Shown here: positions 26,383-42,807 of the stretch, one piece after another
Numbering within the stretch: position 1 is the stretch's first letter
Layout: the number at the start of each line of letters is the position of its first letter
Assembly (NCBI GenBank): GCA_964402245.1
Contig: CAYOBX010000001.1
Coordinates: 1-51,001, forward strand
DNA: 51,001 nt
Direction of reading: 5' to 3'
Origin: an uncultured Saprospiraceae bacterium
GTDB taxonomy: Bacteria; Bacteroidota; Bacteroidia; Chitinophagales; Saprospiraceae
Position numbers and translations under genes: made by a program
Notes under the pieces: generated by a model
What the model was told of the DNA's origin: nothing
Database searches by the model: none
What the model saw: only the letters and a program-made list of their open reading frames with translations

Positions 26383-27720
26383 TTATTTTGATAACGTAAA
26401 ACGTTGGGTCTGTTTTTCAGATAGATTAATGGCGGTGATAAAGTAGATGCCCGCAGGGTAATGACTGCAATCTACCCGTAGCAAAGTTCCATTTCCATTT
26501 ACCCTAAAATTCTGCAAAAGCTGACCGTTTGCATTAAACAGTTGAAAAGATTGCCACTCACTATCCGAAGGATAGCTAATGCTAATCTGATTGGTCGCAG
26601 GATTGGGGCTAATCTGAAAGGATGTGGTTGTTTTTTGAGTAGTCACTATCGGTTGATTTCTAGCAAGAGCTTCGGTTTCTAATAAAGATTGACCACATAA
26701 ACTTTTGGCATCTTTTAAGCTACCTCTAGGACCACCTTCACTTAGCATGGCGGTAATGCGGAGCATTTGACCGAGGGTAAAACTATACATGAAATTATCG
26801 TCGGTAGCATCCATATAATTCATGCTATATTCTACTCGTCCGTCACATAGACTGATATGGCGGTATTCGGCATTAGCGCCATAGTTGGGCGCATTATGCA
26901 CAGGCGTATCAAAAATTCGGTCGTCAGCGCATGGTTTACTATCATTCCAAAGTTCCAGTAGTCCGAGATAAGAGCCTGTAAGATGGACGAGTGACTTCAT
27001 TTGCGCATATTGACGAAACTTGTCCCCCGAAGGTTCAACTAGTTGTCGATTAATGACAATGCCATCCGATTTTTTAGGACTCCAAGGCATCTGGGCATAA
27101 CCCGCTTCGGTATCGGGTAAATCGACTATCCAAATATTGAGATAATTTTCGGGTTGATAGGCGGTAAAATCAAAGCCTTCGACTGCATTATTTCCCAAAG
27201 CAGTTGTCACTAAATCATCAACTGACCATTCTTCAATGCCGACTGGTATATAATTATAGCCCAGAGAACCATTCTCCATCAAATCTACATCCGCTAAGCA
27301 AAATTGAATGCTACCACTAGGCGGCATTAGGCTTTCAAGGTCCAATATATCATGAGCGGGATGTTCCCATTCCGTTTTATATAGAAAAGCATCATTGAGT
27401 GCGGTTAGTTGGGCTTCAATAGCAGCTGGACTAATCGGATTATCCTTATAGACATGGTGAAAGATAATGGGAATGGTGAAGCTTGGTAACTCCCCGTTTA
27501 GTTGGTAGCTTTTTACATAACGTTCGATAGCTTGTCTGCGCTCAACGACTGTTTCATCAGCCAAGCGAAATTGTTTATCAACTGCTTGGGTGGAAAATTG
27601 GCGATAGATTCTTTGGGAAAAACTCGTTTGAGGATTCAAGGAGCAGCTAATAAACAGGAAAAGTACGAACCTTAATGGTAGATTGTGGTAGTTAAAACAG
27701 AGAGAGCTAGTTAGCTTCAT
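26383..27720 (-). CDS. M43 (cytophagalysin/pappalysin)-like protein with a degenerate zinc site and a T9SS C-terminal sorting domain (445 aa)
   Basis: HLTGSYLGLLE replaces HExxHxxGxxH, while the downstream C..D....DTP is conserved. The C-terminus ISPNPATNQISISY...GIYFITA.. is typical of a T9SS type A CTD. Confidence 0.75.
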   Translation of the reverse strand: MKLTSSLCFNYHNLPLRFVLFLFISCSLNPQTSFSQRIYRQFSTQAVDKQFRLADETVVERRQAIERYVKSYQLNGELPSFTIPIIFHHVYKDNPISPAAIEAQLTALNDAFLYKTEWEHPAHDILDLESLMPPSGSIQFCLADVDLMENGSLGYNYIPVGIEEWSVDDLVTTALGNNAVEGFDFTAYQPENYLNIWIVDLPDTEAGYAQMPWSPKKSDGIVINRQLVEPSGDKFRQYAQMKSLVHLTGSYLGLLELWNDSKPCADDRIFDTPVHNAPNYGANAEYRHISLCDGRVEYSMNYMDATDDNFMYSFTLGQMLRITAMLSEGGPRGSLKDAKSLCGQSLLETEALARNQPIVTTQKTTTSFQISPNPATNQISISYPSDSEWQSFQLFNANGQLLQNFRVNGNGTLLRVDCSHYPAGIYFITAINLSEKQTQRFTLSK

Positions 27721-27925: not shown

Positions 27926-28303
27926 TTAGTGTTCACTAGGCAATAGTAAAACATTACCTTCCATCCAAAGCGTGATGCTATATAATGGGAAAGTGGTAAA
28001 ATTAAGGGTAAAAGTTTCAATAATTTTCTTGTTACCATTCTCAATGGTGATGATACAACCTTCACCTCGTCTTACCAGTCGCCACACTTGAAAATCAAGC
28101 GCTTTGATTTTTGAATTAATTTGATGGCTAAATATAAATTCCAATAGCCAATAGCATTCTGCATTTTTGGCTAAGAATCTCACTCCATCGGTGTAACGGA
28201 AGGCTTTGAACAGCGGATGGAAATAATACTGTGTCGTGCCTGAAAACTGCTTGAGGGCAGCTAATAACTCGCCTTTACTCATGTATGTAAAAGTTTTGGA
28301 CAT
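27926..28303 (-). CDS. DUF6876-like protein (125 aa), paralog of 446..832
   Basis: 53/113 identical to the 128-aa ORF, with the same LLLPSEH ending. Confidence 0.65.
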   Translation of the reverse strand: MSKTFTYMSKGELLAALKQFSGTTQYYFHPLFKAFRYTDGVRFLAKNAECYWLLEFIFSHQINSKIKALDFQVWRLVRRGEGCIITIENGNKKIIETFTLNFTTFPLYSITLWMEGNVLLLPSEH

Positions 28304-28450
28304 GGTTAGACCATGTGTTAAAAAATGAAGTTAAGCGTAGTTATAGCAAAGGATTATTGCAGTATTATTACAGCGACCGTAATTTGAATCGAATAGGTAA
28401 AAGTTGTATCTTTAGGGCAGAAACTAAGTAGAGAGAGTTTCACTCATAGT

Positions 28451-28490
28451 GCTTCATTACCTGTTTTACAGCTAATGAAGCCTTTTTATT
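28451..28490 (+). terminator. Orphan plus-strand intrinsic terminator in an ORF-free region
   Basis: GCTTCATTAcCTGTtttACAGcTAATGAAGC followed by CTTTTTATTT. Confidence 0.6.
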
Positions 28491-28669
28491 TCTAGGAGTT
28501 AGGTTGATAAAAGAGAAGTTTGTATTTAATAAAAAACAATGTATTTTTGAATAGCCTTTAATGATTCTCTCTATGTAACGGGGTCGTTTCTCTCTACTTG
28601 GTAAATAGACTCGACCTCGATTTTATTGATTTACTAAAAGCACCATTCAATATAAATATTGGTTAGCTT

Positions 28670-28714
28670 GGTTAAAAAGAAGAAGCCCTAACGCTTGACC
28701 AGCATTAGGGCTTC
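28670..28714 (-). terminator. Intrinsic terminator of the DUF1640-like gene
   Basis: GAAGCCCTAA.GC / GCATTAGGGCTTC stem followed on the minus strand by TTCTTTTT. Confidence 0.65.
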
Positions 28715-28745
28715 ATTCCGTAATGGATATACGATAATTTTAGGC

Positions 28746-29078
28746 TTATCCAATCAGTTTAATGAGGGCAACAGTCAATCCCACACCACCAAGTACAGTA
28801 GCCATCATGGTTTTTTGTAGACTGATGATAGTGTCTTTTACATTGATACTGATATTGGAAATATCTTCTTTAAGTCCGTCTCGGACGCTATCAATTCTTT
28901 CATTAAGTCTTTTTTCTGATTGACGTAAATCTTCTTTTGTAGCAACGCCATTGAGGGTAATTTCTTGAATCGCTTCAATGAAACCTTCTGCTTCTTGTTC
29001 TGAATAGCCTTTATCTTGAAGTAATTTTACTACTTTATATGTGTCCAGATTCAGGGTTGCAGATTCTGTTGAGAACAT
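28746..29078 (-). CDS. DUF1640-like coiled-coil protein with a C-terminal TM helix (110 aa)
   Basis: LDTYKVVKLLQDKGYSEQEAEGFIEAI opening, coiled coil, and C-terminal MMATVLGGVGLTVALIKLIG. Confidence 0.6.
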   Translation of the reverse strand: MFSTESATLNLDTYKVVKLLQDKGYSEQEAEGFIEAIQEITLNGVATKEDLRQSEKRLNERIDSVRDGLKEDISNISINVKDTIISLQKTMMATVLGGVGLTVALIKLIG

Positions 29079-29243
29079 TTTATGCCTTTCTTAGTGTATA
29101 CACTATAACATAGGCTAAATGACTTGGCAAATAAGAGTAAACTTCTGATTAGAAAAACCTTTAATTATAGACTCAAAGCTTATCTGCTGACTATAACTTT
29201 CCATAACATAAATTATCAAACTGGATTATGATGGTGCTAGTAT

Positions 29244-29483
29244 TTACACAACACGCCAAACTCTGGCACCTTCTCCTTCTGGTCGGCAAACAAATTTCTT
29301 AGGCTTATAGCTGTACAACCGTGTCATAACAGCAAGCTTTCCTTTTTTATCTCTGGGAGGTTCTTCTAGAAATACACTATCGCCTACATCCATATTATCT
29401 GCTAAATGTTTCCAAAGCCCTGTTCTGGTTTTAGTGTTTTCAGGTATAGATACACCTTTTTCTATTTTGATATTTTCAAACAT
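29244..29483 (-). CDS. Hypothetical protein (79 aa)
   Basis: ORF only. Confidence 0.45.
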   Translation of the reverse strand: MFENIKIEKGVSIPENTKTRTGLWKHLADNMDVGDSVFLEEPPRDKKGKLAVMTRLYSYKPKKFVCRPEGEGARVWRVV

Positions 29484-29647
29484 TAGTTGTAATCCTTACA
29501 GTTATTGATGACTTCAACACTAAATCCTATTGCTTTAATAGTCAATTAGTTCTTACAATGTTAAGGTTTCTAATAATGTTAAGGAATTGTGGTAGTATAA
29601 AATATTATCAATTCGCTAAAGGTTCAATCTTGAATATTTATTGTAGG

Positions 29648-30766
29648 TTAATTAATTGAATTAGAAATAGAAAATCTTTTTTTGTAAAATTCATTGTATT
29701 CATGTTTTAATCTACCTAATGGAATTGCTGGATGTATATTTATTTCATTAGCAAAACTGATAATTGTTTCACTTGAAAACTCTTCAGTTTTCTCAATAAA
29801 TTTTTTCCATTTTTTCTTGGGAATTAAATGATTTTCGGCAAAAATATTCGCTTCTTTTTCCTTGGAAGCCTGATTTCCTTTATTTCCAGCTATATCATCT
29901 ATGAAAGGAATTTCATTATTTTTATTTGGTTCTAAATGTCTATAAATATGTCCTAATTCATGAAAAAGCGTAAATGCTAGGTTATCTAAACGCTTGTGCC
30001 TGAGAGTAAGACCAATAGCAGGGTTATCCTTACTCCAAAAAGCAATACCATCTACTGGCACTTGGTCGGCTCTCGGTTCTATAATTAGTTTGATACCATA
30101 TTTGGGTAAAATTTTCTCCAGATTATCAACTATTGACTCGCCTAGAAATACACTTTTCAATTTCTCAATCAATTCTGATTCTGATTCTCGATTAAATGCT
30201 TCGATTTTTTTTAATTTGCTAGCCTTGTATTCCACATACTTAACCCAGCCTAGTAAGTTAACTGGATTTACTTTTAAAACAGGAGATTTTTTAAAATTCT
30301 TATAGGTAGCACTTTCCAATTCCATTTTTATTTCATTGGCACTTTTTACTCCATATATCGTAAAAAGGAAATCTATATCTTTTTCTAGAATATTGGATAA
30401 TTTCTTTAGTTTTTTGAAATAGTTTAAAGCTACGTATTGTTTTAAATCAACCCATTTTCTAATTATAGAAACTTTTTTTTGCAGGTTTTTGTCAAGATTT
30501 GCTTTAGCCAGTTCATAATTAGACTGGAGATTAATCCAGTAATCTTTATCTATACCTAAAGCAGCTTCTAGGATAATAGCTAATTCAGTCGAAATACCTC
30601 TTTTTCCCTTTATAATCTCATTGAGTTGAGAATGTGCCATACCAATGGTAATAGCGAATTCTCTTTGCTTTAAATCTTTCTTATCTAAAATGTCTTTCAA
30701 ATATTCTCCAGGGGGAATTGCTATTGCAGGAGTTAATTTATTGATAACTTTTCCTTGTGCATCCAT
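29648..30766 (-). CDS. XRE/HigA-type HTH fused to an ImmA/IrrE (M78) zinc-peptidase domain (372 aa)
   Basis: N-terminal IPPGEYLKDILDKKDLKQREFAITIGMAHSQLNEIIKGKRGIS (HigA-like HTH). HELGH motif at 29948..29962. Confidence 0.75.
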   Translation of the reverse strand: MDAQGKVINKLTPAIAIPPGEYLKDILDKKDLKQREFAITIGMAHSQLNEIIKGKRGISTELAIILEAALGIDKDYWINLQSNYELAKANLDKNLQKKVSIIRKWVDLKQYVALNYFKKLKKLSNILEKDIDFLFTIYGVKSANEIKMELESATYKNFKKSPVLKVNPVNLLGWVKYVEYKASKLKKIEAFNRESESELIEKLKSVFLGESIVDNLEKILPKYGIKLIIEPRADQVPVDGIAFWSKDNPAIGLTLRHKRLDNLAFTLFHELGHIYRHLEPNKNNEIPFIDDIAGNKGNQASKEKEANIFAENHLIPKKKWKKFIEKTEEFSSETIISFANEINIHPAIPLGRLKHEYNEFYKKRFSISNSIN

Positions 30767-30778
30767 AATTTACCTTCT

Positions 30779-31057
30779 TTATTCAACATTAACAATAAGT
30801 AATTGATTACTAGATACTTGCTTAAAGTAGAGATAAAGCTCCGCATTTAATTGTATTGAGTGAAGGTTATGTTCATTATTAGGAGGGAAATAATCTATAT
30901 ATAGTTTTGATAGTTCAGAAATCTTTGGTACAGCCCGTAGCATTTCTATTGTTTTTATCAATTGCCTTCTTACAAAAAATAAGTTCTTGTTATGGTTATT
31001 AGGCTCTTCATCAGAATATAGTGATTCTAATGCAGAATCTTGAAAAAAGATTTGCAT
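30779..31057 (-). CDS. HigB-like (plasmid maintenance killer / RelE superfamily) toxin candidate (92 aa)
   Basis: Small ORF 12 nt upstream of the HTH gene. F.D..LE.LY start and a C-terminal beta pattern resemble HigB. By-eye call only. Confidence 0.5.
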   Translation of the reverse strand: MQIFFQDSALESLYSDEEPNNHNKNLFFVRRQLIKTIEMLRAVPKISELSKLYIDYFPPNNEHNLHSIQLNAELYLYFKQVSSNQLLIVNVE

Positions 31058-31059
31058 AT

Positions 31060-31080
31060 AGTATAAATAAATATTATACT
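31060..31080. promoter_or_regulatory. 7-7-7 palindrome abutting the HigB-like start codon (possible operator)
   Basis: AGTATAA-ataaata-TTATACT. A short AT-rich palindrome, not statistically compelling on its own. Confidence 0.3.
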
Positions 31081-31416
31081 TGTAAAATAATTTTTTAATT
31101 GATAACTAAGTAACGAACTAATTCACAAATTTGTTACTATTTTTTAAAATCAAAAAAAATAAAATTAACTTTTTTGTTAAGTAATTACAAATTAACGCTT
31201 TTAAAATTACTTTTTCAAATAAAACTTAAATTATTTTCAAGCACTATTAATATAATAGGAAAAAAAGAAGAGGATAGAGCGCCAACTCTAACCTCAGGGT
31301 TCTTAGTTCAATAAGAAATATAAATATATAAAAAATATTTCTTCCCTGAAAGTAAAATTTACTTTTTACGCCTCTTCTCCGTTTCCTATATTTTTTCATA
31401 CTTAAACTTTATAATC

Positions 31417-31755
31417 ATGGGTTATCCTAGATTTGAAATCGACACGGACTCGAAAGGGGAATTTCGTTTTAACTTATTTGCTGTAAACGCTAAAAACATT
31501 TTGCGCTCCAGCGAAGGTTACACCACTAAGCAAAATTGTATAAAAGCAATTGAATCTGTAAAAGCTAATGCCCCTAATGACAATCGGTACAAGCGAGGTA
31601 CTTCCAGTAATGGGCAATATTACTTTGTACTGAATGCTCGTAATGGCGAAGCATTAGGGATTAGCGAAATGTATACTACTGTTGCCAATCGTGAAAATGG
31701 TATTGCGGCAGTAAAACGAGATGCACCTGTCGTAACGATTGTCGATTTGACTTAA
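31417..31755 (+). CDS. YegP/DUF1508 tandem-repeat protein (112 aa)
   Basis: Two repeats of the G.[FY][RY]F.L.A.N...[LI]..SE.Y....... I..VK pattern. Confidence 0.75.
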   Translation: MGYPRFEIDTDSKGEFRFNLFAVNAKNILRSSEGYTTKQNCIKAIESVKANAPNDNRYKRGTSSNGQYYFVLNARNGEALGISEMYTTVANRENGIAAVKRDAPVVTIVDLT

Positions 31756-31929
31756 ATTTTTCTACTGCTTTCTGCTTTTTCTGAAGTAGAAAGCAATCTT
31801 TTTTAGGCAATATTTTGGGTATGACTTATCCAAAGTAAACGGCATTGCTATGCCTAAAAATCAAATAGCGACTTACCCACTAGGTCGCTTTCACTCTATT
31901 TTTTAATCTTTTTTAAAATTTTATTTTTT

Positions 31930-33282
31930 ATGAACTTAGCTAAAATTATTAGTAAGACTTTATTCATTAGTTTTTTGTTTTGTGTTAGTTGTGATATTCC
32001 TCCAGTTGATTTATGTTCAAACGGTATTCTAGACCTAGAAAATGGTGAAATAGGAATTGACTGTGGAGGTATAAACTGTGAAGCTTGCCGACAAGTTGAC
32101 ACCTTCAAGGAAATGGTAATCATAGATACCGCAGTTGTCAATCATCCAGAAGCAAAAATTGGACGATTGTCTTTTGGTCATTTGATAAGAAATATGACTA
32201 CCGATGCTGTAACGAAGGAAGATTTAATCCTAGGCTTTTTGCAATCTTGGGAGCGAGAGCAAACCATCAATAATTTTACAGTTGCACCTAGACCTCGTAT
32301 TAATGAAAGGATAATCAAGCCTTGGATGGAAGCGGACGGTCAGGCTGGTAGTCCGATTGACGAATGGAAAATTAACTTAGATAATGCGCCTTTTAAATTA
32401 CTTGCAGTAGTTAATAGATTAGACTTGCTAAAAGTCAAGGAAGGTCGTGTTACTAATTCTGGTGAGGGACGATTTGTTTACTGTGCTGTTGATTCTAATA
32501 ATCGACCTTTGCCTTTTACGGTGATTTTCGAGTATCAATTACCGATTCTAGATACTACGCAGATTTTTCCTTTGGTCTCTAAGTGGCATAACTTGGGAGC
32601 GCATGAGACTTTTGATTCTAGTTATGTTGAAGCACTTATTGCAGTAACAGAGAACTTTGTAGGAAAAAATGTAATGCCAACTAAGCCAAACGGCAATGCC
32701 TTGAACCAGATACGGACGAATGAGGTAGCGCTTAGTGGTCCCTGGGAATTAAGAGAGTTCAACTTAGACCGAACTGAAGGGATATTCAAAGAAGTGACTA
32801 GGAAAATGACACCCGATTTTTCATTAAACGGTAGTCAGCTATTAACGAAGTTTATACAAGAAAACGAAGAAGCTATTAGGACGGGTCAATTTACAATACC
32901 CTTAGTTTATGACGGGCAACCTTTTTTGGGTGGATTTTGTCCAACCAATTCATCTTCTTTTAAATGGAATGCTCCTGGTGTAAGTAGAGAGTTAATCGAC
33001 AAGTTTTCTATAAAAACATGCAATGGTTGCCACGGAGGGGATACAGGAACACCTTTTACACATATAGGACCACCATCTACTTTGCATGAACCTGCGAGTG
33101 TATCAACATTTCTAATGGGAGAAGAAATGAGTAATAGACTTCGCCTTATGCATGAGCATTTTTTGAAAATTCAAGAATTTAATATAGCTAATAAGCCTTC
33201 TAGCAGAACAGTAGCTATGCCATTAGAAAAACAAATTTCTATCGAAGAGTTGATTAGGCGACGGGCAAATAATGTTCATTAG
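31930..33282 (+). CDS. Probable lipoprotein or secreted protein (450 aa) with an N-terminal Cys-rich module and a single CxxCH motif
   Basis: Signal or lipobox LFISFLFCVSC. CSNG..D.ENGE.G.DCGG..C..C module. CNGCH at 33019..33033. Confidence 0.65.
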   Translation: MNLAKIISKTLFISFLFCVSCDIPPVDLCSNGILDLENGEIGIDCGGINCEACRQVDTFKEMVIIDTAVVNHPEAKIGRLSFGHLIRNMTTDAVTKEDLILGFLQSWEREQTINNFTVAPRPRINERIIKPWMEADGQAGSPIDEWKINLDNAPFKLLAVVNRLDLLKVKEGRVTNSGEGRFVYCAVDSNNRPLPFTVIFEYQLPILDTTQIFPLVSKWHNLGAHETFDSSYVEALIAVTENFVGKNVMPTKPNGNALNQIRTNEVALSGPWELREFNLDRTEGIFKEVTRKMTPDFSLNGSQLLTKFIQENEEAIRTGQFTIPLVYDGQPFLGGFCPTNSSSFKWNAPGVSRELIDKFSIKTCNGCHGGDTGTPFTHIGPPSTLHEPASVSTFLMGEEMSNRLRLMHEHFLKIQEFNIANKPSSRTVAMPLEKQISIEELIRRRANNVH

Positions 33283-33326
33283 TAGCATACGTTGAAATTT
33301 AGTTTTACTAGGAACTTAGTATTAGA

Positions 33327-33370
33327 TAACTTTGTTCATATTGTACTATAACATAATGTGAACAAAGTTA
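33327..33370. promoter_or_regulatory. 12-bp perfect inverted repeat just upstream of the patatin gene
   Basis: TAACTTTGTTCA (33327..33338) / TGAACAAAGTTA (33359..33370) with a 20-nt spacer. Confidence 0.4.
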
Positions 33371-33398
33371 CTTTAACCTTTAAAAAATCAAAATTAAT

Positions 33399-35222
33399 AT
33401 GGATATTCAACCATTAAAAGTCGATGACTTTATTCAAGAGGTGAAGCCTATTTTAGATACTCTAAGAAAAAATGTAGCACAAAACAATACAGAAATTCGA
33501 GTCTCAGATATATTCGATAAAGCAGGTAATCAGTATATTAATCTGGTTCAAGAAGGAGGTGGGCTATTAGGAATTGCTTTAGTTGGATTCACCTATGTTT
33601 TGGAAGAAATGGGCATTCGTTTCTTGAGTTTGGGAGGTACTTCTGCAGGTGCAATTAATACTATTTTTTTAGCTGATGTCGATAAACCTGCAAATAAAAA
33701 AAGTCTTGCAATTTTAAAGAAAATTGCAGGTTTTGATTTTATGCAATTTGTAGATGGAGGCAGACGTGCTAAATGGCTGGTTAATGCAATGGCTAAGGAA
33801 AAAACAGCACTAACCTACTTGTTAGCGGTAATGAATGCACCTAGATTGTTTCAGAAAAAAGGGATTAACCCAGGGACTTTTTTTGAAGACTGGTTAGAAA
33901 AAGAATTAAAGCACAAAAGGTTAGATGCCTTAGACAAGAACATAAAAGATATTCCTGACTTAATCTTAAAAGATGACTACGGGAAGGAAAGAAAGTTAGA
34001 CCCTAAAAAGTTGGCTATTAAATTAGCTATTGTAGCTGCGGATATTACTACGCAAACAAAGGTAGAGTTTCCCAAAATGGCTGAGTTGTATTTAAGAAAT
34101 CCTAAAGTCGAAAGCCCTGCCGCTTTTGTTAGAGCCTCGATGTCAATTCCTGTATTTTTTGAGCCCAAACAATTTAATCTTTCCTCTTTTACTGGTGGGA
34201 AAAAAGATTTTTATCAAGAGAGATGGAAAGCTTTAGCTGATTTTAGGTCTTCTCAACTTCCCGAAAGTGTACAGATGGTAGATGGTGGCGTGATGTCTAA
34301 CTTTCCTATTGATTTATTTCATACAGAAGACACCATTCCTTTGCGACCAACTATTGGTGTCAAATTGGGGATAGATCGGTATAATTTTAAAAAACATGGT
34401 GGCTTATTTAAATTTGCGGGGAATATTTTTGACGGAGTACGGAATTTGAGAGACCATGAGTTTTTAAAAACGAATCAGGAATATCAAGAATTAGTTGAAC
34501 ATATCAATATAGATGATATTAATTGGTTGGATTTTAACCTATCCAACGAAAATCAACTAAGATTATTTAGAGAAGGGGCGGTTGCTGCACAAAATTTTCT
34601 TAACCGTTTTAATTGGACGAATTATAAGAAGCGTTTAAAATCAGAGCTAATTCAGCGCATCAAACCACTTACTTGGGAGTTGTCTAATATTGATGATTTA
34701 GAAGGGGTATTAGAGGTTTTCAAAATAGAAAGAGGCACCCCACTTTTTGAACGGATACAGGAAATAAAAAAACGACCTGAGCCTTATAAAGTGCTTTGGG
34801 TAGATAACTCATTTACCTATACCTTGCCTATGGCTATTTTAGATAAGCTCAATATTTCTTGTATTACTGCTAATAGCTCCGAAGAAGCCTTTGATATTAT
34901 TGATGAACACGATGATATTGACTTAATTATCTCTGATTTAACCAGAGACAATAGCAATATAGGAGGTATTACACTTTGCCAGCGGCTGGCTTTAGATCCT
35001 AAGGCTAAAAATATCTCCGTATTAATTTACGTCCATAGTCAATCAAGTTTAAAAGAAAGATATTTTAAACATTTAAAGGAAACTAATGATTCTATAATCA
35101 GGTCTATCCGTTCTCCTGAAGAAGTAGAATTACCCAAAAATATAATTAATAGTATTGGTAGAAATACTGTTAGTCATAAAGAGTTTATCATGGAGGTTGT
35201 AGAAAATATTGATAAAAGCTAA
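33399..35222 (+). CDS. Patatin-like phospholipase fused to a C-terminal receiver (REC)-like domain (607 aa)
   Basis: GGGLLG oxyanion motif, GTSAG nucleophile elbow (Ser82, 33642..33644), and VDGG catalytic Asp (34281..34283). The C-terminus KVLWVDN...DLIISDL...VLIYVHS fits a CheY-like beta-alpha pattern. Confidence 0.8.
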   Translation: MDIQPLKVDDFIQEVKPILDTLRKNVAQNNTEIRVSDIFDKAGNQYINLVQEGGGLLGIALVGFTYVLEEMGIRFLSLGGTSAGAINTIFLADVDKPANKKSLAILKKIAGFDFMQFVDGGRRAKWLVNAMAKEKTALTYLLAVMNAPRLFQKKGINPGTFFEDWLEKELKHKRLDALDKNIKDIPDLILKDDYGKERKLDPKKLAIKLAIVAADITTQTKVEFPKMAELYLRNPKVESPAAFVRASMSIPVFFEPKQFNLSSFTGGKKDFYQERWKALADFRSSQLPESVQMVDGGVMSNFPIDLFHTEDTIPLRPTIGVKLGIDRYNFKKHGGLFKFAGNIFDGVRNLRDHEFLKTNQEYQELVEHINIDDINWLDFNLSNENQLRLFREGAVAAQNFLNRFNWTNYKKRLKSELIQRIKPLTWELSNIDDLEGVLEVFKIERGTPLFERIQEIKKRPEPYKVLWVDNSFTYTLPMAILDKLNISCITANSSEEAFDIIDEHDDIDLIISDLTRDNSNIGGITLCQRLALDPKAKNISVLIYVHSQSSLKERYFKHLKETNDSIIRSIRSPEEVELPKNIINSIGRNTVSHKEFIMEVVENIDKS

Positions 35223-35286
35223 TTATCATTTGAGTGCGCTACAGTTTAGTGGGTTTTAAATATGTTCAAACATTTAGTTCTCCTGA

Positions 35287-35534
35287 AATTAATGGGTATT
35301 ATCGAACAAAAGGCAAATTTGTCCCACAGGCTTAATTTTCATCGAAAACGGCTATAAAAATAGACTATGGTGATAACGAACGTTAAAATTATAGGATAAG
35401 ACCATACAAAACGCTCATGTATCGCTATGAAATTATTATGGTTTTAGTCCAAAATTTGCCTTAAAACCATAGCATTGTCGGCTATATTTAGTTATGGGAC
35501 ATTTCCGACTTTTGTGCGATATTACCCAATTAAT
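35287..35534. repeat. About 250-bp imperfect palindromic element (MITE-like, or a structured RNA locus)
   Basis: 39-nt terminal arms (35287..35325 / 35496..35534) are complementary at 29/39 positions without gaps. There is an extra internal inverted copy of AAGGCAAATTT at 35447..35468, plus nested CTATGGT/ACCATAG pairs. Confidence 0.55.
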
Positions 35535-35756
35535 CTAGCATTTATATATTTACATGATGTTAAATTTTATTCCAAGTCATTTATCATATAGAGTGGAACG
35601 ATATGAGTCTATGATATAAAGATTAAGTAATTCTTTCTAAGGTTGTTATTTTTGTAAAGAGAGTAAGATTGCTTATGTGAGGTTCTTTCTAATGGTAGAT
35701 GTTATGATTTTTAATTAACTAAGAATTTTTTATTCCTAATAGAAATGGGGGAATGA

Positions 35757-36314
35757 TTAAAACATAGTTACATAATAGGTAATAGCTACAGTTAGAATAA
35801 TAGTAAAAAAAATAAATAGAATAAGATTAATTATTTTAATATTAATAGCTTCTTTTTCCTGTAATCTAGCTAATTCTGCTTGTTCGCACTTATCTAAAAG
35901 CAGGGGAAGAATTGCTTCTAGCCTTGATTGAGAATTTTCTGGAGATTCAGCTTTTACAGCTACCAATATATCTATTATTAAATCGTTGAATAGCTCTTCT
36001 ATTTGTTGTAAATCATTATCAGATGCCATTCCAATCCAGCCAAAGAAGTAGTTTGCTTTTCTTTTAGAGGAAGTTTCCAAACTATAATTGACAGCCTCAA
36101 GTGGTAGAACAGGTCTAGACCTAACGACATAGCCTAGTTTTTTCTCTTTTGGAGAAACTTTGAATTGGTTTATAGCAATTCTCTCAGAGAATGAACCATT
36201 TAGATAATATTTAGCTAAACCTGTAGGTGTTCTATCACTTGCAATCAAAATGGCTGAATAGCCATCTTGAAGACCTGCAATAATAAAAGGTATTTTTGAA
36301 TCTAATTTTATCAT
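35757..36314 (-). CDS. Tail-anchored protein (185 aa), possible Roadblock/LC7 (MglB-like) domain
   Basis: The N-terminal GLQDGYSAILIASDRTPTGLA loosely matches the Roadblock G..A.L+...dG pattern. C-terminal TM helix INLILFIFFTIILTVAITYYV. Last gene of the GTPase operon. Confidence 0.55.
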   Translation of the reverse strand: MIKLDSKIPFIIAGLQDGYSAILIASDRTPTGLAKYYLNGSFSERIAINQFKVSPKEKKLGYVVRSRPVLPLEAVNYSLETSSKRKANYFFGWIGMASDNDLQQIEELFNDLIIDILVAVKAESPENSQSRLEAILPLLLDKCEQAELARLQEKEAINIKIINLILFIFFTIILTVAITYYVTMF

Positions 36315-36438
36315 TCTAGTTGGTCTTTTTAGTTTGAATTATGCATAATGATAACTGATTTGTAATTTTTATTATTTTGAGGTGACGAATATTTATATGC
36401 TATATGAAGGCAATTGCAATTTTTTTGCCATATTTAAT

Positions 36439-37431
36439 TTATTTTAATATGTAGTCATAATTATCTTTCATATGGCTTACAAAATTAGCAATATCGTTCT
36501 GTACAAAGTTAGAATGGTAAAATATTTTGATTTCTCTACCTTTGGGAAACCATTTTGCATTTTTCATTTTTATTTTTATTCCTTCAGTAAAGTCTCTTAA
36601 TATTTTTTCATTTACGTCGTCTTTTTCCCATAAGTCTTTTTTATTAATAAAGATGCAAATGCCCTTAATTATGTGGTCAATTTCTGTGTATTTATCATCC
36701 AAATAACCTATAATCTCATCAGCAAAATATTCATGTTCTTTGAGTCTAGCTTCGTTAATAGCTGATGAATTGTTAGATTCATTGTGGTCTAAAAATAGAC
36801 AAATAAAACTTTTGTTAATTGCTACTTTGAATTGTTGGAAAAAAACTTGTCCTTTTCCATCAAATAAATTTACTCTTTTTCCTATTTCAATTATCCAGGT
36901 ATGCTTTGATAGTTCAGTTGTAGAAATAGGGGCTTTCAAGTTTAATAGTTTTGTTATCAAAGTACTTTTTCCAACCTTACTTTTTCCTATGAAAGCTATC
37001 TCAGGATAATCTTTTTGTTCTGATTCTATTTCTTTCTTGTCTTCCGTTTTTAGATTATTGTGAGACGGCTTCAATATGAGTACAAACAATCTTGCAATAG
37101 CTGCTAGAAAAGGAAAAGCTAGAATCCAAGCTTCATTGGAGTTGAGAGTTTCCTTTGTAAAGAGGAAAACACAAAGACTTGTGGTAGTAATAAGAACAAT
37201 TACACATATTACCAAAATGATAATTTTGTAAACCTTTTTATTATCATATCTATTTAAAAAAAGACTAGCTATTATTCCTATGGTAATCAATGATAGTCCC
37301 CATTGATAATAACTATTGCTATCTTGTTTTAGTATCCACCCAATAGCTGTAACAATGAAAGTAAGTATTCCTAGTACATCAGCTATGAGTCCTATTTTCT
37401 CGAATAGAATTTCTTTTTTGTCTCTTGTCAT
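36439..37431 (-). CDS. Membrane-anchored small GTPase (330 aa; 4 N-terminal TM helices plus a TRAFAC-type G domain)
   Basis: G1 GKSKVGKS (36964..36987), G3 DGKG (36850..36861), G4 NKKD (36634..36645). Hydrophobic helices at about residues 14-34, 45-59, 68-92 and 101-120. Confidence 0.75.
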   Translation of the reverse strand: MTRDKKEILFEKIGLIADVLGILTFIVTAIGWILKQDSNSYYQWGLSLITIGIIASLFLNRYDNKKVYKIIILVICVIVLITTTSLCVFLFTKETLNSNEAWILAFPFLAAIARLFVLILKPSHNNLKTEDKKEIESEQKDYPEIAFIGKSKVGKSTLITKLLNLKAPISTTELSKHTWIIEIGKRVNLFDGKGQVFFQQFKVAINKSFICLFLDHNESNNSSAINEARLKEHEYFADEIIGYLDDKYTEIDHIIKGICIFINKKDLWEKDDVNEKILRDFTEGIKIKMKNAKWFPKGREIKIFYHSNFVQNDIANFVSHMKDNYDYILK

Positions 37432-37468
37432 TTGTATAAAATTTTGAGTTAATATTAGTTTTTTATTT

Positions 37469-38377
37469 TTAGTCTTCTAGAGACAACTTAGCGAATGTCA
37501 GTAGCTCAGAAATTGCCGAGTTTCGGTCTATTCTAGATAACGAAGAAATTAACCCTACATTTAATATTTGTGCTTCTTCATTTGCAATATGAGTAGGTAG
37601 CATAATTTTTTTGAACATCAAAGCTTTAGGTTGGTTTGAAGCCTCTTCATTGCACATATTATTATTTATAGATGAAGATGAAGATAGTATAGATAATAAA
37701 TCTAGATTTTTGTTACAATAATTTTCTATAGTTTTTTCTTTAGTGTTTACTCTAATTTCAATTGTGACATCACTATTTGATGTCTTCTTTGCTGTAATGA
37801 TAAAACCTTCTGAGAGTTTAATAATTTCTTTTTCTACTTTATCAGTTGCTTGAATAATTATTCTTGACTTTTTTGGAAGATTGAATTTGATAGATTTGTC
37901 TCTAAAAACTATAGTATCTGTCTTTCTATTTGTTAGTTCGTCTTTACTTGGTATGTAGATTTTATCTCCCCTTCTAATGTCTACTAAATCATTACTTATA
38001 GTCCTGTCTAGAACTAAATTTTTATAACTATTATCTTTTTCTCTCTTTTTTGTTGTGAATGAAATTATAGATTGATACATATATGAATGACCATATTCTT
38101 TTTTGGAGATACTTGATAAAGTTTCTCCTCTATTCTCTATAATGTAATCTCGGCCTTTAACTATATAAGAGGAATCTTCAAATATCTTAGATTCCAAAAT
38201 TTCTTTTTCTCGTAGGCTTGATATTTTAGAAGGAGAAATTGAAATAACATTGTCTCTTTCTGGGGTTAATTCTGAGTTCTTTTTTTTATTAAAAAGGTAT
38301 ACAAGCCATGCCGCACAAGATAGAATGACAATAGAGAGTATTGTTGTAAGTATCTTTGAAGATAAAATAGCTTTCAT
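37469..38377 (-). CDS. Single-pass membrane protein with a LysM-like domain (302 aa)
   Basis: TM helix ILTTILSIVILSCAAWLVYLF. The Y.VKG.....GETLSSISKKEYG......I..GDKIYIP pattern resembles LysM with an insertion. Confidence 0.6.
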   Translation of the reverse strand: MKAILSSKILTTILSIVILSCAAWLVYLFNKKKNSELTPERDNVISISPSKISSLREKEILESKIFEDSSYIVKGRDYIIENRGETLSSISKKEYGHSYMYQSIISFTTKKREKDNSYKNLVLDRTISNDLVDIRRGDKIYIPSKDELTNRKTDTIVFRDKSIKFNLPKKSRIIIQATDKVEKEIIKLSEGFIITAKKTSNSDVTIEIRVNTKEKTIENYCNKNLDLLSILSSSSSINNNMCNEEASNQPKALMFKKIMLPTHIANEEAQILNVGLISSLSRIDRNSAISELLTFAKLSLED

Positions 38378-38793
38378 AAGTATAATTTTAAGTTAAAGAC
38401 AAACATAATACATTTTTCTGCTAGTAAAAATTATATGTAAAGAATTTTTGTGGTGACATTTTTTATATTCTCACGTCACGCAGGTTTTCCCCATTTCATA
38501 CTGCTTTTATTTGCTCCTGTCCGCTTTTGATTACCAAAGTAGGACAGGATAGCCCTGCCCTACCCTTTCAGCCTTTATCTCCAAACTTGTCTATTTCACT
38601 AGATTGTCCTGCTTTCGAAACTAGGATGACTTGAAAATTACTGTCTTAAAGGGGGGCAACAGGGATAACTAAAGGACTGAAAACTAGCCTTTTTATTGCT
38701 GCGGGTTTGGTGTCTTAAAAAGAACTGGTTTTGGGATATGAGTTTTGTTGTGGCTGCATGCTATTATATTGATTCTTCGGTTTATGTCGGTTT

Positions 38794-38845
38794 GCTAAAA
38801 CGTTAATATGGGCTACGTACACATATTAACGTTTTAGCCATTTTT
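38794..38845. terminator. 17-bp perfect hairpin with a T-run on the plus strand, abutting the stop of the 429-aa gene
   Basis: GCTAAAACGTTAATATG (38794..38810) / CATATTAACGTTTTAGC (38822..38838), then CATTTTT. Confidence 0.65.
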
Positions 38846-40134
38846 CATTGAAATACAGAAGCGGGTTTCATTGGTTTAATTATGACTTGACTATTCGTTC
38901 TATCATCAAGTATTTTGAAATACTTATTTTCCGTTTTTGAATTAAAAATTTCCGTGTAACCGTCTAATGTTTCAATTTCAATCGTAAACCCAATTGTATT
39001 TTTTGTGAGTGGAATTCTCACATCCTTTATCCAAGTTATTTCCCCAGTCTTAAAATTTGGTACTTTTTTCTCTACTGTTGGCATAGTAAAAGTTTTATAT
39101 GATACCCAACCGTCGATGTTTTTTCTTGCCAAGTTAGACCATGCCGTTTTTGCCAGCAATTTCAATGTAAACCCTGCATCTGAAACATTAACAAATTCCC
39201 AAGGACTATTTTCTTCTCTTCTTGTTACATGAAATACAGTTGATGATTGGATTAACTTATGTCCTGTTGGAACAATCGTCGGATAATTACATGTTTCATC
39301 GCTCCTTCTTCCACTTCTACATTTATAATGATGAGGAGGCTTAGGAGTATGATGCGAATGTTCTTTTCTATTTTTAGATTTCTCAGTAATTCCTATCCTA
39401 TAAGTTCCCATTACTTTTGGTAATGAGAACAAAGGGATTTTAAATTTTCTTTCTTCGTAGTTAGGAAATACTAATAGTTTTGTTGTTTTGTGAAATACTA
39501 CTAAATCTACCGTTTCAGTTTTTATTTTTTTCTTTGGATTACTAAATTTCTCCAACGGTATATTGAATTGAAGGGTGCTTGACCCAGATTGAATAGGTTT
39601 TATTTTTTCACCATTTACAATTAGGAATGGTTCATATTCATCCCCATATATATGAAGTCTACTTCCGTATATTGGCAGGCTCACGTTATCTTCATTTGAT
39701 AATTTTAAGAAATGAACTTTATCTGGTTTCCTAACTCTTGGAAACTTTTCAAAAAAAGGAATTCGAGAAATTGATTCATCCAAATTATCTGTTACGACCT
39801 GTATTTCTTTTACCGTTTTATACAGTCCATTATTGAGGTTATTTATTAGTTTGTCTAAATCAGTAAATACTCTTTGTTGAGTTATATCTAGTTTATCAAA
39901 AGTTTCATTCATTGATTTTGAATATGCTGCTTTTAAATTTTCTATTTGAACTTGGACTTGTTGAGAACCAACCATTATTGTTGTTCTTGCTTCTTCACCT
40001 GCCTTTTCAATTAAATTTTTTCCAGCTTGCTCTAATTTAGAAATTGCTACACCAATGGACAAACCCCCAAATTGACTGTAGGTAATATTATTAATGGTAA
40101 AAAAGATGATGATTAGAATGATGTTTCTTTTCAT
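38845..40134 (-). CDS. Secreted protein (429 aa): signal peptide, helical N-terminal region, beta-rich C-terminal region with a His-rich patch
   Basis: MKRNIILIIIFFTINNITYSQ signal. Heptad-like region at residues about 30-115. HSHHTPKPPHHYKC patch. No family recognised. Confidence 0.65.
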   Translation of the reverse strand: MKRNIILIIIFFTINNITYSQFGGLSIGVAISKLEQAGKNLIEKAGEEARTTIMVGSQQVQVQIENLKAAYSKSMNETFDKLDITQQRVFTDLDKLINNLNNGLYKTVKEIQVVTDNLDESISRIPFFEKFPRVRKPDKVHFLKLSNEDNVSLPIYGSRLHIYGDEYEPFLIVNGEKIKPIQSGSSTLQFNIPLEKFSNPKKKIKTETVDLVVFHKTTKLLVFPNYEERKFKIPLFSLPKVMGTYRIGITEKSKNRKEHSHHTPKPPHHYKCRSGRRSDETCNYPTIVPTGHKLIQSSTVFHVTRREENSPWEFVNVSDAGFTLKLLAKTAWSNLARKNIDGWVSYKTFTMPTVEKKVPNFKTGEITWIKDVRIPLTKNTIGFTIEIETLDGYTEIFNSKTENKYFKILDDRTNSQVIIKPMKPASVFQ

Positions 40135-40495
40135 TTTTGATGATTTTTTATTTAGCTACAATTTTTAACTATACGCTATGTGGTATAGAGCTAGGCTAGC
40201 CACTAAGGTACAAAATCAAGATTGAAAAAGGAAAATGTTGCTATAAAAATCCGTTAAGTTAGACTGTGAGTCTTCATCTCATCTAATTTCCGCCTGTCTT
40301 AAAAAGTAGAGAAAAAAAGATAGGTCACCCAGGAATAGCAACCTACTTGATTCGCAAGATTGAGGACTGGTAAGTAGCACGAATATGAACATTAATAGAA
40401 TTAGAGAGAAGGCTAATAACAAGGTGAGTTGTGCTATAATTGAGTAGATAGTTAGTTAAAAGAATGTGTGACTATAATAATAAGGTTCTTGGACG

Positions 40496-40510
40496 GTGAA
40501 AAGAAAAAGA
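40496..40510 (+). repeat. GTGAAAAGAAAAAGA 15-mer, copy 1
   Basis: Exact 15-mer. Four copies in the replicon: 40496 and 40666, and inverted at 41592 and 17221. Confidence 0.75.
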
Positions 40511-40665
40511 CAGTATAGATTTTAATTCTGCTGGGGAAATGCCTATTTTGCAACTACAAAATTCTACATCTAAAATATCAATTAGAATGTGGTAGCTAAT
40601 GAAATCGAGGGAGAAGGTTAAAGCTATTTCATTATTTAGAAAATGTAGTAAAATTTTTTGTGCGG

Positions 40666-40680
40666 GTGAAAAGAAAAAGA
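40666..40680 (+). repeat. GTGAAAAGAAAAAGA 15-mer, copy 2 (47 nt upstream of the KilA-N start)
   Basis: Exact repeat 170 bp downstream of copy 1. Confidence 0.75.
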
Positions 40681-40726
40681 TTGGCAGAACCATTTCACTT
40701 AAACCTATATAGAGAAAATCACACCT

Positions 40727-41578
40727 ATGGCAAAAAAGAAAACGATTAATGTTCAAGGTAATGAAATAAGCCTTATCACTCAAGGAGATGAAGAATATAT
40801 CAGCCTTACGGATATGGCTAAAGGCTTTGAAGGGGAAGCAGGAGAGTATATTAGAAATTGGTTGCGGAATAACTCAACTGTTCGTTTCTTAGGTGTTTGG
40901 GAGAAAGTACATAACCCTAATTTTAATTTGGTGGAATTCCACCAAATTAAAGCTGAACTGGTAGATAACACTTTTCTTATGTCTGTTAAGAAATGGATAG
41001 CACGGACTAGTGCTATTGGTATGCAAGCACGAGCGGGTAGATATGGAGGTACTTATGCTCATAATGAGATAGCTTTGCAATTTGCAACATGGTTAAGCCC
41101 TGAATTTCATGTTTATCTTGTAAAAGAATTCAAAAGATTAAAACAGGATGAGGCAATACGACTTGGTTTACAATTTGACCTAAGACGAGAATTGACCAAG
41201 ACCAATTATGCATTACAGACGGATGCGATTAAGGCAATGCTTGTTCCTGATAAGGTGAAAGGTACGAAAGATGCCAGCCCATTTTATAGCAATGAAGCGG
41301 ATTTACTTAATGTAGTTGTTTTTGGCGATACAGCAAAGGGATGGAAAACTAAGAACCCAACCTTAAAAGGCAATATGCGTGACCATGCTACGATTGAACA
41401 ACTAATGCTTCTTCTTAATATGGAGGTACTAAATGCGACGATGATACATTGGGAATGGACACAGGAAATGCGGTTGGAAGTGTTACATAAAGAATCTAAA
41501 CGGCAGATGCCAACGATATTAAGGAGTGCTGCAATGAAGAGAATTAAGTCTAATGGAAAGAAGAAATTAAAATCGTGA
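40727..41578 (+). CDS. KilA-N domain DNA-binding protein (283 aa)
   Basis: The N-terminus INVQGNEISLITQGDEEYISLTDMAKGF... is typical of Bacteroidota KilA-N proteins. Confidence 0.75.
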   Translation: MAKKKTINVQGNEISLITQGDEEYISLTDMAKGFEGEAGEYIRNWLRNNSTVRFLGVWEKVHNPNFNLVEFHQIKAELVDNTFLMSVKKWIARTSAIGMQARAGRYGGTYAHNEIALQFATWLSPEFHVYLVKEFKRLKQDEAIRLGLQFDLRRELTKTNYALQTDAIKAMLVPDKVKGTKDASPFYSNEADLLNVVVFGDTAKGWKTKNPTLKGNMRDHATIEQLMLLLNMEVLNATMIHWEWTQEMRLEVLHKESKRQMPTILRSAAMKRIKSNGKKKLKS

Positions 41579-41589
41579 GAGAGGACCAA

Positions 41590-41606
41590 CTTCTTTTTCT
41601 TTTCAC
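41590..41606. repeat. CTTCTTTTTCTTTTCAC 17-mer (inverted 15-mer core), downstream of KilA-N
   Basis: Identical to 17219..17235 and reverse complement of the 40496 / 40666 copies. Confidence 0.75.
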
Positions 41607-41646
41607 AAGCAAGCACCGCAGGTCGAAATTTTTTGAGCAAATTTCT

Positions 41647-41678
41647 TATTATCACCTTTTGAGTGAAGGTGATAATAA
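41647..41678. repeat. Hairpin built from an inverted iteron plus a half-iteron, between convergent genes
   Basis: TTATTATCACCTT-ttgagtg-AAGGTGATAATAA. The left arm plus loop is the reverse complement of the iteron CACTCAAAAGGTGATAATAA. Confidence 0.7.
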
Positions 41679-41706
41679 AAGAAAAAGAGCGTTTGCCCCT
41701 GCCCTA

Positions 41707-42540: not shown

Positions 42541-42770
42541 ATCCTTTTATTTTAAGATGAAGGAAATTCTTCTTACTTTAAAATTAAGGTATTTTAGTAA
42601 ATTAAACAAATTTATAATTGTATTTTTTTCTAATTAGATTTTATCGTTCAATAATCAGTTTTTTATTAATTATAAATTTTTCCAATTAGAAAAATGTGCA
42701 ATATCTAATATCTTTACCTTTTTAAAATATGAAAAGTATAAATCGGAATGGAGAAACGAGTAACATGAAC

Positions 42771-42790: not shown

Positions 42791-42807
42791 ACAATCTAAT
42801 GATGAAC

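Follow-up and report, generated by a model that had tools for sequence, protein, structure and literature searches.

Patatin-like lipases under regulatory control, such as CapV of the cyclic oligonucleotide-based antiphage signaling system (CBASS), are established executioners of bacterial immunity, CapV itself being a signal-activated cytoplasmic lipase, and the receiver (REC) domain is the commonest switch in bacteria. In Escherichia coli the two domain types stand side by side in the rssA-rssB pair, where a patatin-like gene adjoins that of a receiver-containing regulator, although the genes are separate and RssB combines a canonical receiver with a PP2C-like output. This pairing hints at an old functional link between the patatin and receiver domain types. 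In the DNA analysed here, a stretch of 51,001 nucleotides from an uncultured Saprospiraceae bacterium (contig CAYOBX010000001.1; the whole stretch is called the window below), the two domain types are joined in one polypeptide of 607 amino acids (aa), designated as patatin-REC or the query. We see an about even chance that this protein is a soluble cytoplasmic patatin lipase gated by an atypical-receiver switch, which is probably independent of a histidine kinase. On this reading it would belong to the signal-gated patatin effectors or, equivalently, to the response regulators with enzymatic output. The features of the gene on which the argument depends are the following (AF2, AlphaFold2 model).

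33399..35222, plus strand: patatin-REC gene, complete open reading frame (ORF) of 607 aa
33543..34319, plus strand: patatin-like phospholipase domain (Pfam PF01734), residues 49-307
33555..33572, plus strand: glycine-rich oxyanion-hole motif GGGLLG, G53-G58
33636..33650, plus strand: GxSxG nucleophile elbow GTSAG, residues 80-84, with the S82 codon at 33642..33644
34281..34289, plus strand: catalytic-dyad motif DGG, residues 295-297, with the D295 codon at 34281..34283
34320..34613, plus strand: patatin-core extension, residues 308-405, with a strand at 318-324 and helices at 336-358 and 383-403 (AF2 secondary structure)
34614..34784, plus strand: helical linker between lipase and receiver, with a long helix at 406-430 and helices at 434-440 and 448-457 (AF2)
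34785..35216, plus strand: C-terminal atypical receiver domain, residues 463-606, ending one residue before the stop codon
34797..34808, plus strand: end of beta1 with W467, D469 (CheY D12) and N470 (CheY D13)
34935..34946, plus strand: D513 at the phospho-acceptor position (CheY D57) and R516 at D+3 (CheY M60)
35031..35033, plus strand: V545 at the position of CheY T87, the conserved receiver Thr/Ser; switch residue absent
35064..35129, plus strand: 22-residue insertion FKHLKETNDSIIRSIRSPEEVE between alpha4 and beta5, present in the family alignment only in the query and its homolog P0002
35151..35153, plus strand: S585 at the position of CheY K109, the conserved receiver Lys; Lys absent

The ORF lies exactly where the original prediction, made from the letters of the DNA, had placed it, and the motifs quoted there for the patatin half (GGGLLG at 53-58, GTSAG at 80-84 with S82, DGG at 295-297 with D295) and for the receiver half (KVLWVDN at 464-470, DLIISDL at 508-514, VLIYVHS at 541-547, with the D513 codon at 34935..34937) are exact. 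The claim of a full patatin catalytic set was borne out by the PF01734 match (E=3.7e-22; 79.9 bits against a cut-off of 27.7) and by residue conservation, which was counted throughout over 114 full-length homologs with receiver positions mapped by alignment to CheY: G53, G54, G55, R74, S82, D295, and G296 are invariant in 114/114. The usual patatin oxyanion-hole motif, GGxR/KG, carries a basic residue; the query has Leu57 at this position, and the leucine is kept in at least 90% of the family alignment. This is a variation inside the patatin family that brings no exclusion by Pfam criteria, and to judge from the sequence it may reflect a substrate preference differing from that of the characterised phospholipases. 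The Ser82/Asp295 dyad is intact, and the predicted lipase is active-looking.

The protein is predicted to be soluble, with no transmembrane (TM) segment, no signal peptide, and no type IX secretion system (T9SS) tail, its maximum 19-residue Kyte-Doolittle mean being 1.5. The full-length AF2 model reached a predicted local distance difference test score (pLDDT) of 86.8 and a predicted TM-score (pTM) of 0.71, and a Foldseek search with it found the nearest solved folds of the lipase half in CapV (8zr9, 9jek, and 9kej; E~7e-8), PlpD (5fqu), and ExoU (4akx), all with probability 1.0 at 12-15% identity. The extension that follows the Pfam domain is common to stand-alone, patatin-only relatives of about 405-470 aa, whose tblastn matches stop at query residues ~410-420.

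The nature of the C-terminal domain was less apparent, since the signals obtained with the single sequence stayed below threshold (23.0 bits against 30.2 for Pfam Response_reg; E=0.004-0.06 in NCBIfam; E=0.03 for phmmer against the PDB). Nevertheless, a profile of 31 family C-termini searched against the PDB gave a best E value of 1.6e-7, and all 60 matches listed were CheY or other receiver-containing proteins. Pfam Response_reg itself was found at E <= 0.01 in 18 of these 31 C-termini, the best at 9.1e-9; the receiver is not picked up by Pfam in the query's clade, and some distant members carry a precomputed Response_reg call. The AF2 model of residues 436-607 (pLDDT 94.1, pTM 0.89) has the (beta-alpha)5 order, and every Foldseek match of the C-terminal model at E <= 0.001 was a receiver domain. 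The domain had been described in the original prediction as receiver or flavodoxin-like and possibly TIR-like, with structure prediction proposed as the check; the receiver part of that description stood, while a TIR or SLOG fold for residues 460-607 was ruled out by the profile search against the PDB, by Pfam, and by Foldseek (none in the top 50). The C-terminal domain is a genuine receiver (CheY) fold. Its start at 34785 was placed correctly, but it runs to residue 606 (nucleotide 35216), slightly past the end at 35138 that had been given.

The residue set of this receiver is atypical. The acidic pocket is kept: D513, previously named as the candidate phospho-acceptor, does align with CheY D57 and is kept in 114/114 homologs, as D469 is in 113/114, while the second acidic position (470, CheY D13) is Asn in the query and Asp, Ser, or Asn in 96, 11, and 7 members of the family, respectively. 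G523 occupies the position of CheY G65. W467 (114/114) and R516 (104/114) are fixed or nearly so, at positions that are not conserved in ordinary receivers, and Arg at D+3 recurs in 31/31 patatin-linked receivers and in 63/64 receivers of the small proteins described below. In contrast, the residues that couple phosphorylation to the canonical switch are lost: at the position of CheY T87 the homologs have A (47), I (35), S (26), or V (6) and in no case Thr, the small proteins have V, I, or L with Thr in 2/64, and the segment of CheY K109 shows no conserved Lys across the 114 homologs, K109-P110 being replaced in the subfamily by [R/S/N]-P. In a single-sequence HMMER alignment the Arg of SIIRSI was placed on CheY K109 because of the 22-residue insertion; this candidate was rejected, as the segment is the insertion private to the query and P0002. 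With these switch residues gone, it is doubtful that the receiver is under canonical two-component control.

Both halves of the protein are under purifying selection: in comparison with the 86% identical copy of locus L004, likewise plasmid-borne, the ratio of nonsynonymous to synonymous substitution rates (dN/dS) was 0.076 over the whole gene (lipase 0.081, linker 0.043, receiver 0.073), figures that are approximate with dS close to saturation. Near-invariant D513, D469, W467, and R516 together with this selection fit a functional pocket better than a mere scaffold.

The same receiver variant extends well beyond patatins. A profile built from the patatin-linked receivers alone retrieved small proteins of 200-320 aa with E values down to 1e-26, in which the domain is joined to EAD11, HetE-N, DUF4062, or an N-terminal hydrophobic anchor, and which share the Trp, the Asp, the Arg at D+3, and the loss of Thr, together with a strongly kept beta5-alpha5 segment, GTPPYAFGITN[RSN]P..ELVHLV.D..ER. 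A HMMER search of 1.84 billion representatives gave 190 clusters (50% identity) of the variant at E <= 1e-30, with the domain nearly always placed at the very C-terminus. In the long members the fusion partner is a KAP nucleoside triphosphatase (NTPase; QatA-like), TPR repeats, a Ser/Thr kinase alone, TetR-like domains (TetR_C), or patatin, and a further long fusion combines SH3, REC, TIR, Ser/Thr kinase, and FGE-sulfatase. One such protein (P0257, 1874 aa) contains SH3, an ordinary receiver, the atypical variant, TIR_2, Ser/Thr kinase, and FGE-sulfatase, and in it the variant is internal rather than C-terminal.

With the subfamily profile the members score at least 66 bits, ordinary stand-alone response regulators ~25, and a hybrid kinase 52 summed over three fragments. 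The query obtained 90 bits (E=6.9e-26), a score that is partly circular because the query belonged to the training alignment; independent support for its membership comes from the profile made of patatin-linked receivers only, with which the small proteins were retrieved at 1e-26. The variant has no model in NCBIfam, and cREC (PF20274) was rejected as its family, having matched 2/31 C-termini (E=0.0015) against 18/31 for PF00072. On sequence grounds the variant is thus a discrete, atypical "LW[IV]DD ... SDxxR" subfamily of receivers in which the acidic pocket (D469, D513) is kept.

Kinase-independent receivers in NTPase conflict systems are a prediction of Kaur, Burroughs, Iyer, and Aravind from 2020 and 2021 (PMC7159879, PMC8195603), who noted receivers without histidine kinases among vWA-MoxR and iSTAND effectors and predicted them to be nucleotide-responsive switches; a similar idea was put forward by Iyer et al. 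for the separate cRec family (PMC7824862). In PMC7159879 and PMC8195603 these receivers are mentioned briefly as sporadic effectors, and the word "patatin" occurs 0 times; the cRec paper likewise makes no mention of fusions to patatin. By its sequence features the receiver subfamily of the query matches the kinase-independent receivers of Kaur et al. The fusion is abundant in the databases, and the variant receives passing mention in the conflict-system literature without being defined there.

The window was compared end to end and its bases 1-55 were found identical to bases 50947-51001, which is the signature that an assembler's k-mer overlap leaves on a closed circle; the window is therefore an entire circular plasmid of ~50,946 bp. 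Pfam scans revealed no HisKA or HATPase_c domain in window ORFs of at least 120 aa and no nucleotidyltransferase or cyclase among the plasmid ORFs, and the receiver-variant profile, which also detects ordinary receivers, found no other receiver-like ORF in the window. The absence of a kinase from the replicon and of a cyclase nearby, as originally predicted, was therefore borne out for the scanned ORFs of the closed plasmid. No EAD11-like segment is present in the window or in the patatin-REC proteins, and no NTPase core adjoins the gene.

The absence of a kinase had been pointed out for this replicon, but it does not set the plasmid apart, for the homologs are generally orphans. Kinase- or receiver-like neighbours within 6 kb were found at 4/25 fused and 6/52 patatin-only loci and at none in the query's clade, and an adjacent histidine kinase was rejected as a family feature for this lack of enrichment. 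Since kinases are not enriched near any homolog, the missing plasmid kinase says little. In two related Saprospiraceae metagenome-assembled genomes (MAGs; loci L029 and L031) a histidine-kinase-like gene of 687-688 aa is the immediate convergent neighbour (+1), which is the sole hint of kinase proximity.

Concerning the distribution, 2088 matches were found among 5.8 billion proteins, and 114 of the best 120 are full-length, at ~560-690 aa. The nearest homolog (P0002, 86% identity) lies on short metagenome contigs; the next ones, at 44-52% identity, lie on chromosomes of Lewinella, Neolewinella, and Lewinellaceae MAGs, where the contigs reach 5 Mb, and distant ones, at 35-41% identity, come from other Saprospiraceae, further Bacteroidota MAGs, and one Phycisphaerae MAG. 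When one genome per species was taken, 26 of 77 resolved loci contained the fusion, and the remainder contained stand-alone patatins of ~405-470 aa from many phyla; to judge from the sequences, a widespread patatin core has thus been elaborated into the fusion in particular lineages. On the plasmid the gene is cargo, derived from a family that resides on the chromosome in Lewinellaceae and Saprospiraceae. No patatin-REC fusion was found in the 72,556 plasmid records of PLSDB, which yielded two weak patatin-only matches, no homolog in the 50,697 phage records of INPHARED, and no blastn match to the 31.3-35.3 kb segment. One homolog bears the JGI label "RssA/CheY-like", and the annotation is otherwise only "patatin-like phospholipase". 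The architecture had been put forward as not recognisable among described ones, and indeed our literature search found no paper describing a patatin-receiver fusion; it is nevertheless not rare, given more than 100 full-length homologs and its presence in 26/77 loci.

The survey of homolog neighbourhoods, which had been proposed together with the idea of a defence function, gave a divided answer. Most homologs are chromosomal and solitary with synteny at genus level, which speaks against defence, and one locus lies in a defence island, which speaks for it. The chromosomal orthologs have housekeeping neighbours (TrmB, a T9SS protease, an S10 peptidase) and are syntenic only within genus, in Lewinella and Neolewinella. 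Neighbour clustering found no neighbour conserved across the family, and a conserved operon partner was rejected, as the candidates on the plasmid (the DUF1508 gene, the 450-aa gene, the HigBA/M78 module, and the downstream TM-GTPase block) have homologs only in L004 and in none of the other loci. The patatin-REC gene therefore stands alone in its organisation, and most of the EAD11-REC and TM-REC genes are solitary too.

The defence island is found on a marine contig (locus L099, 1265-10363, plus strand) and encodes SIR2_2 with TPR (753 aa), an ORF (244 aa), TIR with EAD11 (272 aa), FRG (311 aa), an ORF (192 aa), NUDIX (191 aa), TM with Macro (364 aa), and patatin-REC (587 aa). The last gene begins 24 bp downstream of the TM-Macro gene in this co-directional cluster, and it is the sole patatin-REC locus seen in a defence island. 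We take the TIR and TM-Macro pair of this locus to resemble type II Thoeris.

Separate observations were made on genes of the small receiver-variant proteins. At L104 (3312-5998) and L105 (1758-4960) an EAD11-REC gene shares 4 bp with the beginning of a fragment encoding an AAA_2 (Clp-like) ATPase, and further ORFs with EAD11-like N-termini flank it, which fits the published "EAD coupling" pattern. At L100 (478-5268) a 220-aa protein with the variant is encoded, and two genes downstream of it follows an nSTAND1 NTPase of 1143 aa that has Lcl_C as its C-terminal domain.

On the preferred reading of a receiver-gated lipase, the receiver would keep the resting lipase inactive by way of the long helical linker. 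A signal received either in the acidic pocket or on the conserved beta5-alpha5 face might then change the oligomeric state, and the changed oligomeric state would switch on hydrolysis of membrane lipids. Candidate inputs are phosphorylation by a non-cognate donor, a nucleotide or small molecule that bears phosphate, or a partner protein with the same module; any input would come from the host or from an invader. We infer that the role is one in stress or conflict response more likely than in housekeeping lipid metabolism, and a defence role is plausible. For a conflict role speak the fusion partners of the receiver variant and the one defence-island locus; against it speak the core-like syntenic distribution in Lewinellaceae and the lack of a linked sensor or signal generator.

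Several observations weigh against the reading of a kinase-independent, receiver-gated lipase with a role in conflict. Gating of the lipase by the receiver is most likely, but it is deduced from the architecture alone. Orphan response regulators served by distant kinases are common, and for this reason the absence of a nearby kinase does not prove kinase independence. In the query's clade the beta5-alpha5 segment reads LPKNIINS.GRNT..H.EFI.EVV and is accompanied by the 22-aa insertion, in place of the consensus GTPPYAFGITN.P.ELVHLV.D..ER; because of this divergence and of the Asn at the second acidic position, the input of this clade may differ from that of the rest of the subfamily. The consensus segment is carried by the patatin-REC clades of P0076, P0098, and L099. 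Moreover, patatin-REC in the query's clade looks like a vertically inherited core-like gene, which is atypical for defence genes, the SIR2/TIR/NUDIX/Macro context of L099 was not found at other loci and remains a single-locus defence context, and no PADLOC model matches patatin-REC, its homologs, or the small receiver-variant proteins, the best match (E=0.014) being to a generic phospholipase effector.

Among the alternatives, it is possible, though doubtful, that the protein is a classical orphan response regulator, in which a chromosomal kinase or phosphorelay phosphorylates D513 and the lipase then remodels the membrane on an environmental signal; since related hosts carry chromosomal paralogs, the plasmid copy would plug into an existing host pathway. 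The REC fold with its essentially invariant phospho-acceptor Asp and first acidic residue, the Response_reg matches in 18/31 family members, the conserved and syntenic chromosomal orthologs in housekeeping contexts, the kinase-like convergent neighbour in L029 and L031, and the common occurrence of orphan regulators are all in line with it. However, the Thr/Ser and Lys of the canonical phosphorylation-coupled switch are absent family-wide, kinase-like neighbours show no enrichment (4/25 versus 6/52) and are lacking in the query's clade, the subfamily profile is sharply separate from ordinary receivers, and the partners to which the variant is joined (EAD11, HetE-N, DUF4062, KAP-NTPase, TIR) are foreign to two-component signalling. 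The loss of the same Thr and Lys switch residues could also mean that the receiver is degenerate and serves structure or dimerisation without any signal input, the enzyme being a constitutive esterase of lipid metabolism, as the widespread stand-alone patatins of ~405-470 aa evidently function without the domain; this appears very unlikely, since D513, D469, W467, and R516 are invariant or nearly so across proteins of 35-50% identity and purifying selection constrains the receiver (dN/dS 0.073) as strongly as it does the catalytic domain.

That patatin-REC is a dedicated immune or abortive-infection executioner, whose activated patatin domain would, like CapV in CBASS, disrupt the infected cell's membrane, is on the whole unlikely; together with the classical orphan regulator it is a live rival to, or a refinement of, the preferred reading. 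Its trigger would be a nucleotide-derived alarm signal, or docking to proteins with the same module or to EAD11 adaptors on NTPase sensors. Such a function agrees with the closest solved structures of the lipase half, which are CapV filaments and dimers, with the fusion network of the variant, largely made of conflict-system modules, and with the published predictions of kinase-independent nucleotide-responsive receivers (PMC8195603) and of cRec (PMC7824862); it also agrees with the SIR2 / TIR-EAD11 / NUDIX / TM-Macro cluster around patatin-REC in L099, the AAA_2 ATPases beside EAD11-REC in L104 and L105, the nSTAND1 NTPase near the variant in L100, and the position of the query copy as plasmid cargo beside a PD-Lambda-2_B-like gene. 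On the other hand, neither on the plasmid nor at about 30 other loci does the gene have a linked NTPase sensor or an enzyme that would generate a signal, the orthologs are core-like and syntenic rather than patchy, PADLOC gave no match, the 50,697 phage records contained no homolog and the 72,556 plasmid records two weak patatin-only matches, and the TetR-like fusions indicate that the module is not confined to conflict proteins. In a wider version, which we regard as quite unlikely, the variant would be a general kinase-independent switch or adaptor of an as yet uncharacterised layer of bacterial immune signalling that couples executioners to NTPase sensors, with patatin-REC as the membrane-destroying terminal effector, mobilised in this case on a plasmid; an alarm molecule with a phosphate would bind the Asp/Arg pocket, or receivers would dock to each other via the beta5-alpha5 face, and EAD11-REC would bridge NTPase sensors to the patatin lipase, DUF4062, and TIR-kinase proteins and to membrane anchors. 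A secreted or injected patatin toxin of the ExoU/VipD/VpdC type, directed against other cells, is hardly credible: ExoU does appear among the structures close to the lipase half, a large polymorphic-toxin-like gene (DUF6443/HNH) is present on the plasmid, and the NCBIfam model of the Legionella effector VpdC gives a weak local match (E=4.7e-7), but this match covers residues 47-89 only, the region of the glycine-rich and GxSxG motifs, and the protein has no signal peptide, T9SS C-terminal sorting domain, or TM segment and no adjoining secretion-system genes.

The remaining features of the plasmid and of the immediate surroundings of the gene are as follows.

2104-4839, minus strand: TrwC relaxase, mobility function
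6790-8253, minus strand: type-IV coupling protein, mobility function
26383-27720: M43 peptidase with T9SS sorting tail, after the DUF6443/HNH gene
29648-31057, minus strand: two-gene module of a 92-aa ORF (30779-31057) followed by a 372-aa HTH_3 + Peptidase_M78 protein (29648-30766)
31930-33282, plus strand: 450-aa protein with a signal- or lipoprotein-like N-terminus and no Pfam match
33283-33398, plus strand: upstream intergenic region with a candidate Bacteroidota-type -7 box TAACTTTG at 33327-33334, as read from the sequence
33328-33338 / 33359-33369: perfect 11-bp inverted repeat with a spacer of 20, overlapping the -7 box candidate
35757-40134, minus strand: convergent downstream block of four genes with no or weak Pfam matches, including membrane and GTPase genes
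42808-44217, minus strand: Rep3 initiator, plasmid function
46708-47403: ParA, plasmid function

Further plasmid and mobility genes found by the Pfam scan of the window ORFs encode SSB, Toprim, DUF932 proteins, and a tyrosine recombinase. The gene at 19830-26348 (minus strand) encodes a protein of 2172 aa in which DUF6443 is combined with a C-terminal HNH nuclease, giving it an RHS/polymorphic-toxin-like architecture. The T9SS sorting tail of the M43 peptidase encoded next to it indicates a host within Bacteroidota. The cargo region 28300-44300, which includes the patatin-REC gene, has a GC content of 0.32 against 0.39-0.40 in the transfer and toxin parts. Upstream of patatin-REC lie the HigA-like/M78 gene with its 92-aa partner, the DUF1508 gene, and the 450-aa lipoprotein-like gene. 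The 372-aa HTH_3/M78 protein has a HigA-type N-terminus (1.3e-17) and matches PADLOC PD-Lambda-2_B over its full length (5.8e-49), and with the 92-aa ORF it looks like a toxin-antitoxin or defence-type module by sequence. This HigBA/M78 module is kept together with the patatin gene in L004, with which 29655..35212 (5.6 kb) is collinear at 82% nucleotide identity, the similarity stopping at the 3' end of the patatin gene. The 450-aa protein contains a single CNGCH (CxxCH, heme-c-like) motif at residue 364 and, at 72.6% identity to its L004 counterpart against 86-96% for the neighbours, belongs to the fastest-evolving gene of the shared block. The 11-bp inverted repeat upstream of patatin-REC could be an operator or a hairpin. 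The downstream block, one gene of which encodes a 330-aa protein that joins N-terminal TM helices to a small GTPase domain (MMR_HSR1 4e-6; weak PADLOC LeoA 2e-4), is absent from the related contig L005.

If a lipase under a receiver outside two-component signalling is confirmed, it would represent a novel means of keeping a dangerous enzyme in check. The significance extends beyond the query gene to a receiver variant of 190 clusters that is found on many immunity-type modules and has no curated family, and of which the patatin fusion is the most tractable member for learning what the variant senses, lipase activity being a direct readout. If the domain is instead an ordinary orphan response regulator, the finding shrinks to an unannotated domain in a "patatin-like phospholipase" family.

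In comparison with the known systems, patatin-REC resembles CapV of CBASS in the patatin fold, in the Ser/Asp dyad, and as its closest solved structure (Foldseek E~7e-8; TM-score 0.57-0.59 normalised to CapV), but the identity is 12-14%, and CapV is without a receiver, is activated by cyclic GMP-AMP (cGAMP), and is encoded beside a cGAS/DncV-like nucleotidyltransferase (CD-NTase). On the plasmid no CD-NTase or cyclase is adjacent to the gene, and the best PADLOC match is at E=0.014. With the enzymatic-output regulators CheB, PleD, RssB, and PorX it shares a receiver fused to an enzyme and an acidic pocket with the phospho-acceptor Asp; in contrast to them, the query receiver is C-terminal instead of N-terminal, has neither the Thr/Ser nor the Lys, has the signature Trp and Arg, and has no cognate kinase that was found. 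The stand-alone patatins of Bacteroidota, Pseudomonas, Burkholderiales, and Nitrospiraceae share 39-45% identity with query residues 1 to ~415, including the extension after the patatin domain, although they end before the linker and have no receiver. On the receiver side, the query differs from the EAD11-REC/NTPase conflict systems in having no EAD or linked NTPase and a diverged beta5-alpha5 segment, while with the EAD11-REC, HetE-N-REC, and DUF4062-REC proteins it belongs by score to the same subfamily (E to 1e-26 and 1e-41), has the signature residues in common, and is equally an orphan with regard to histidine kinases.

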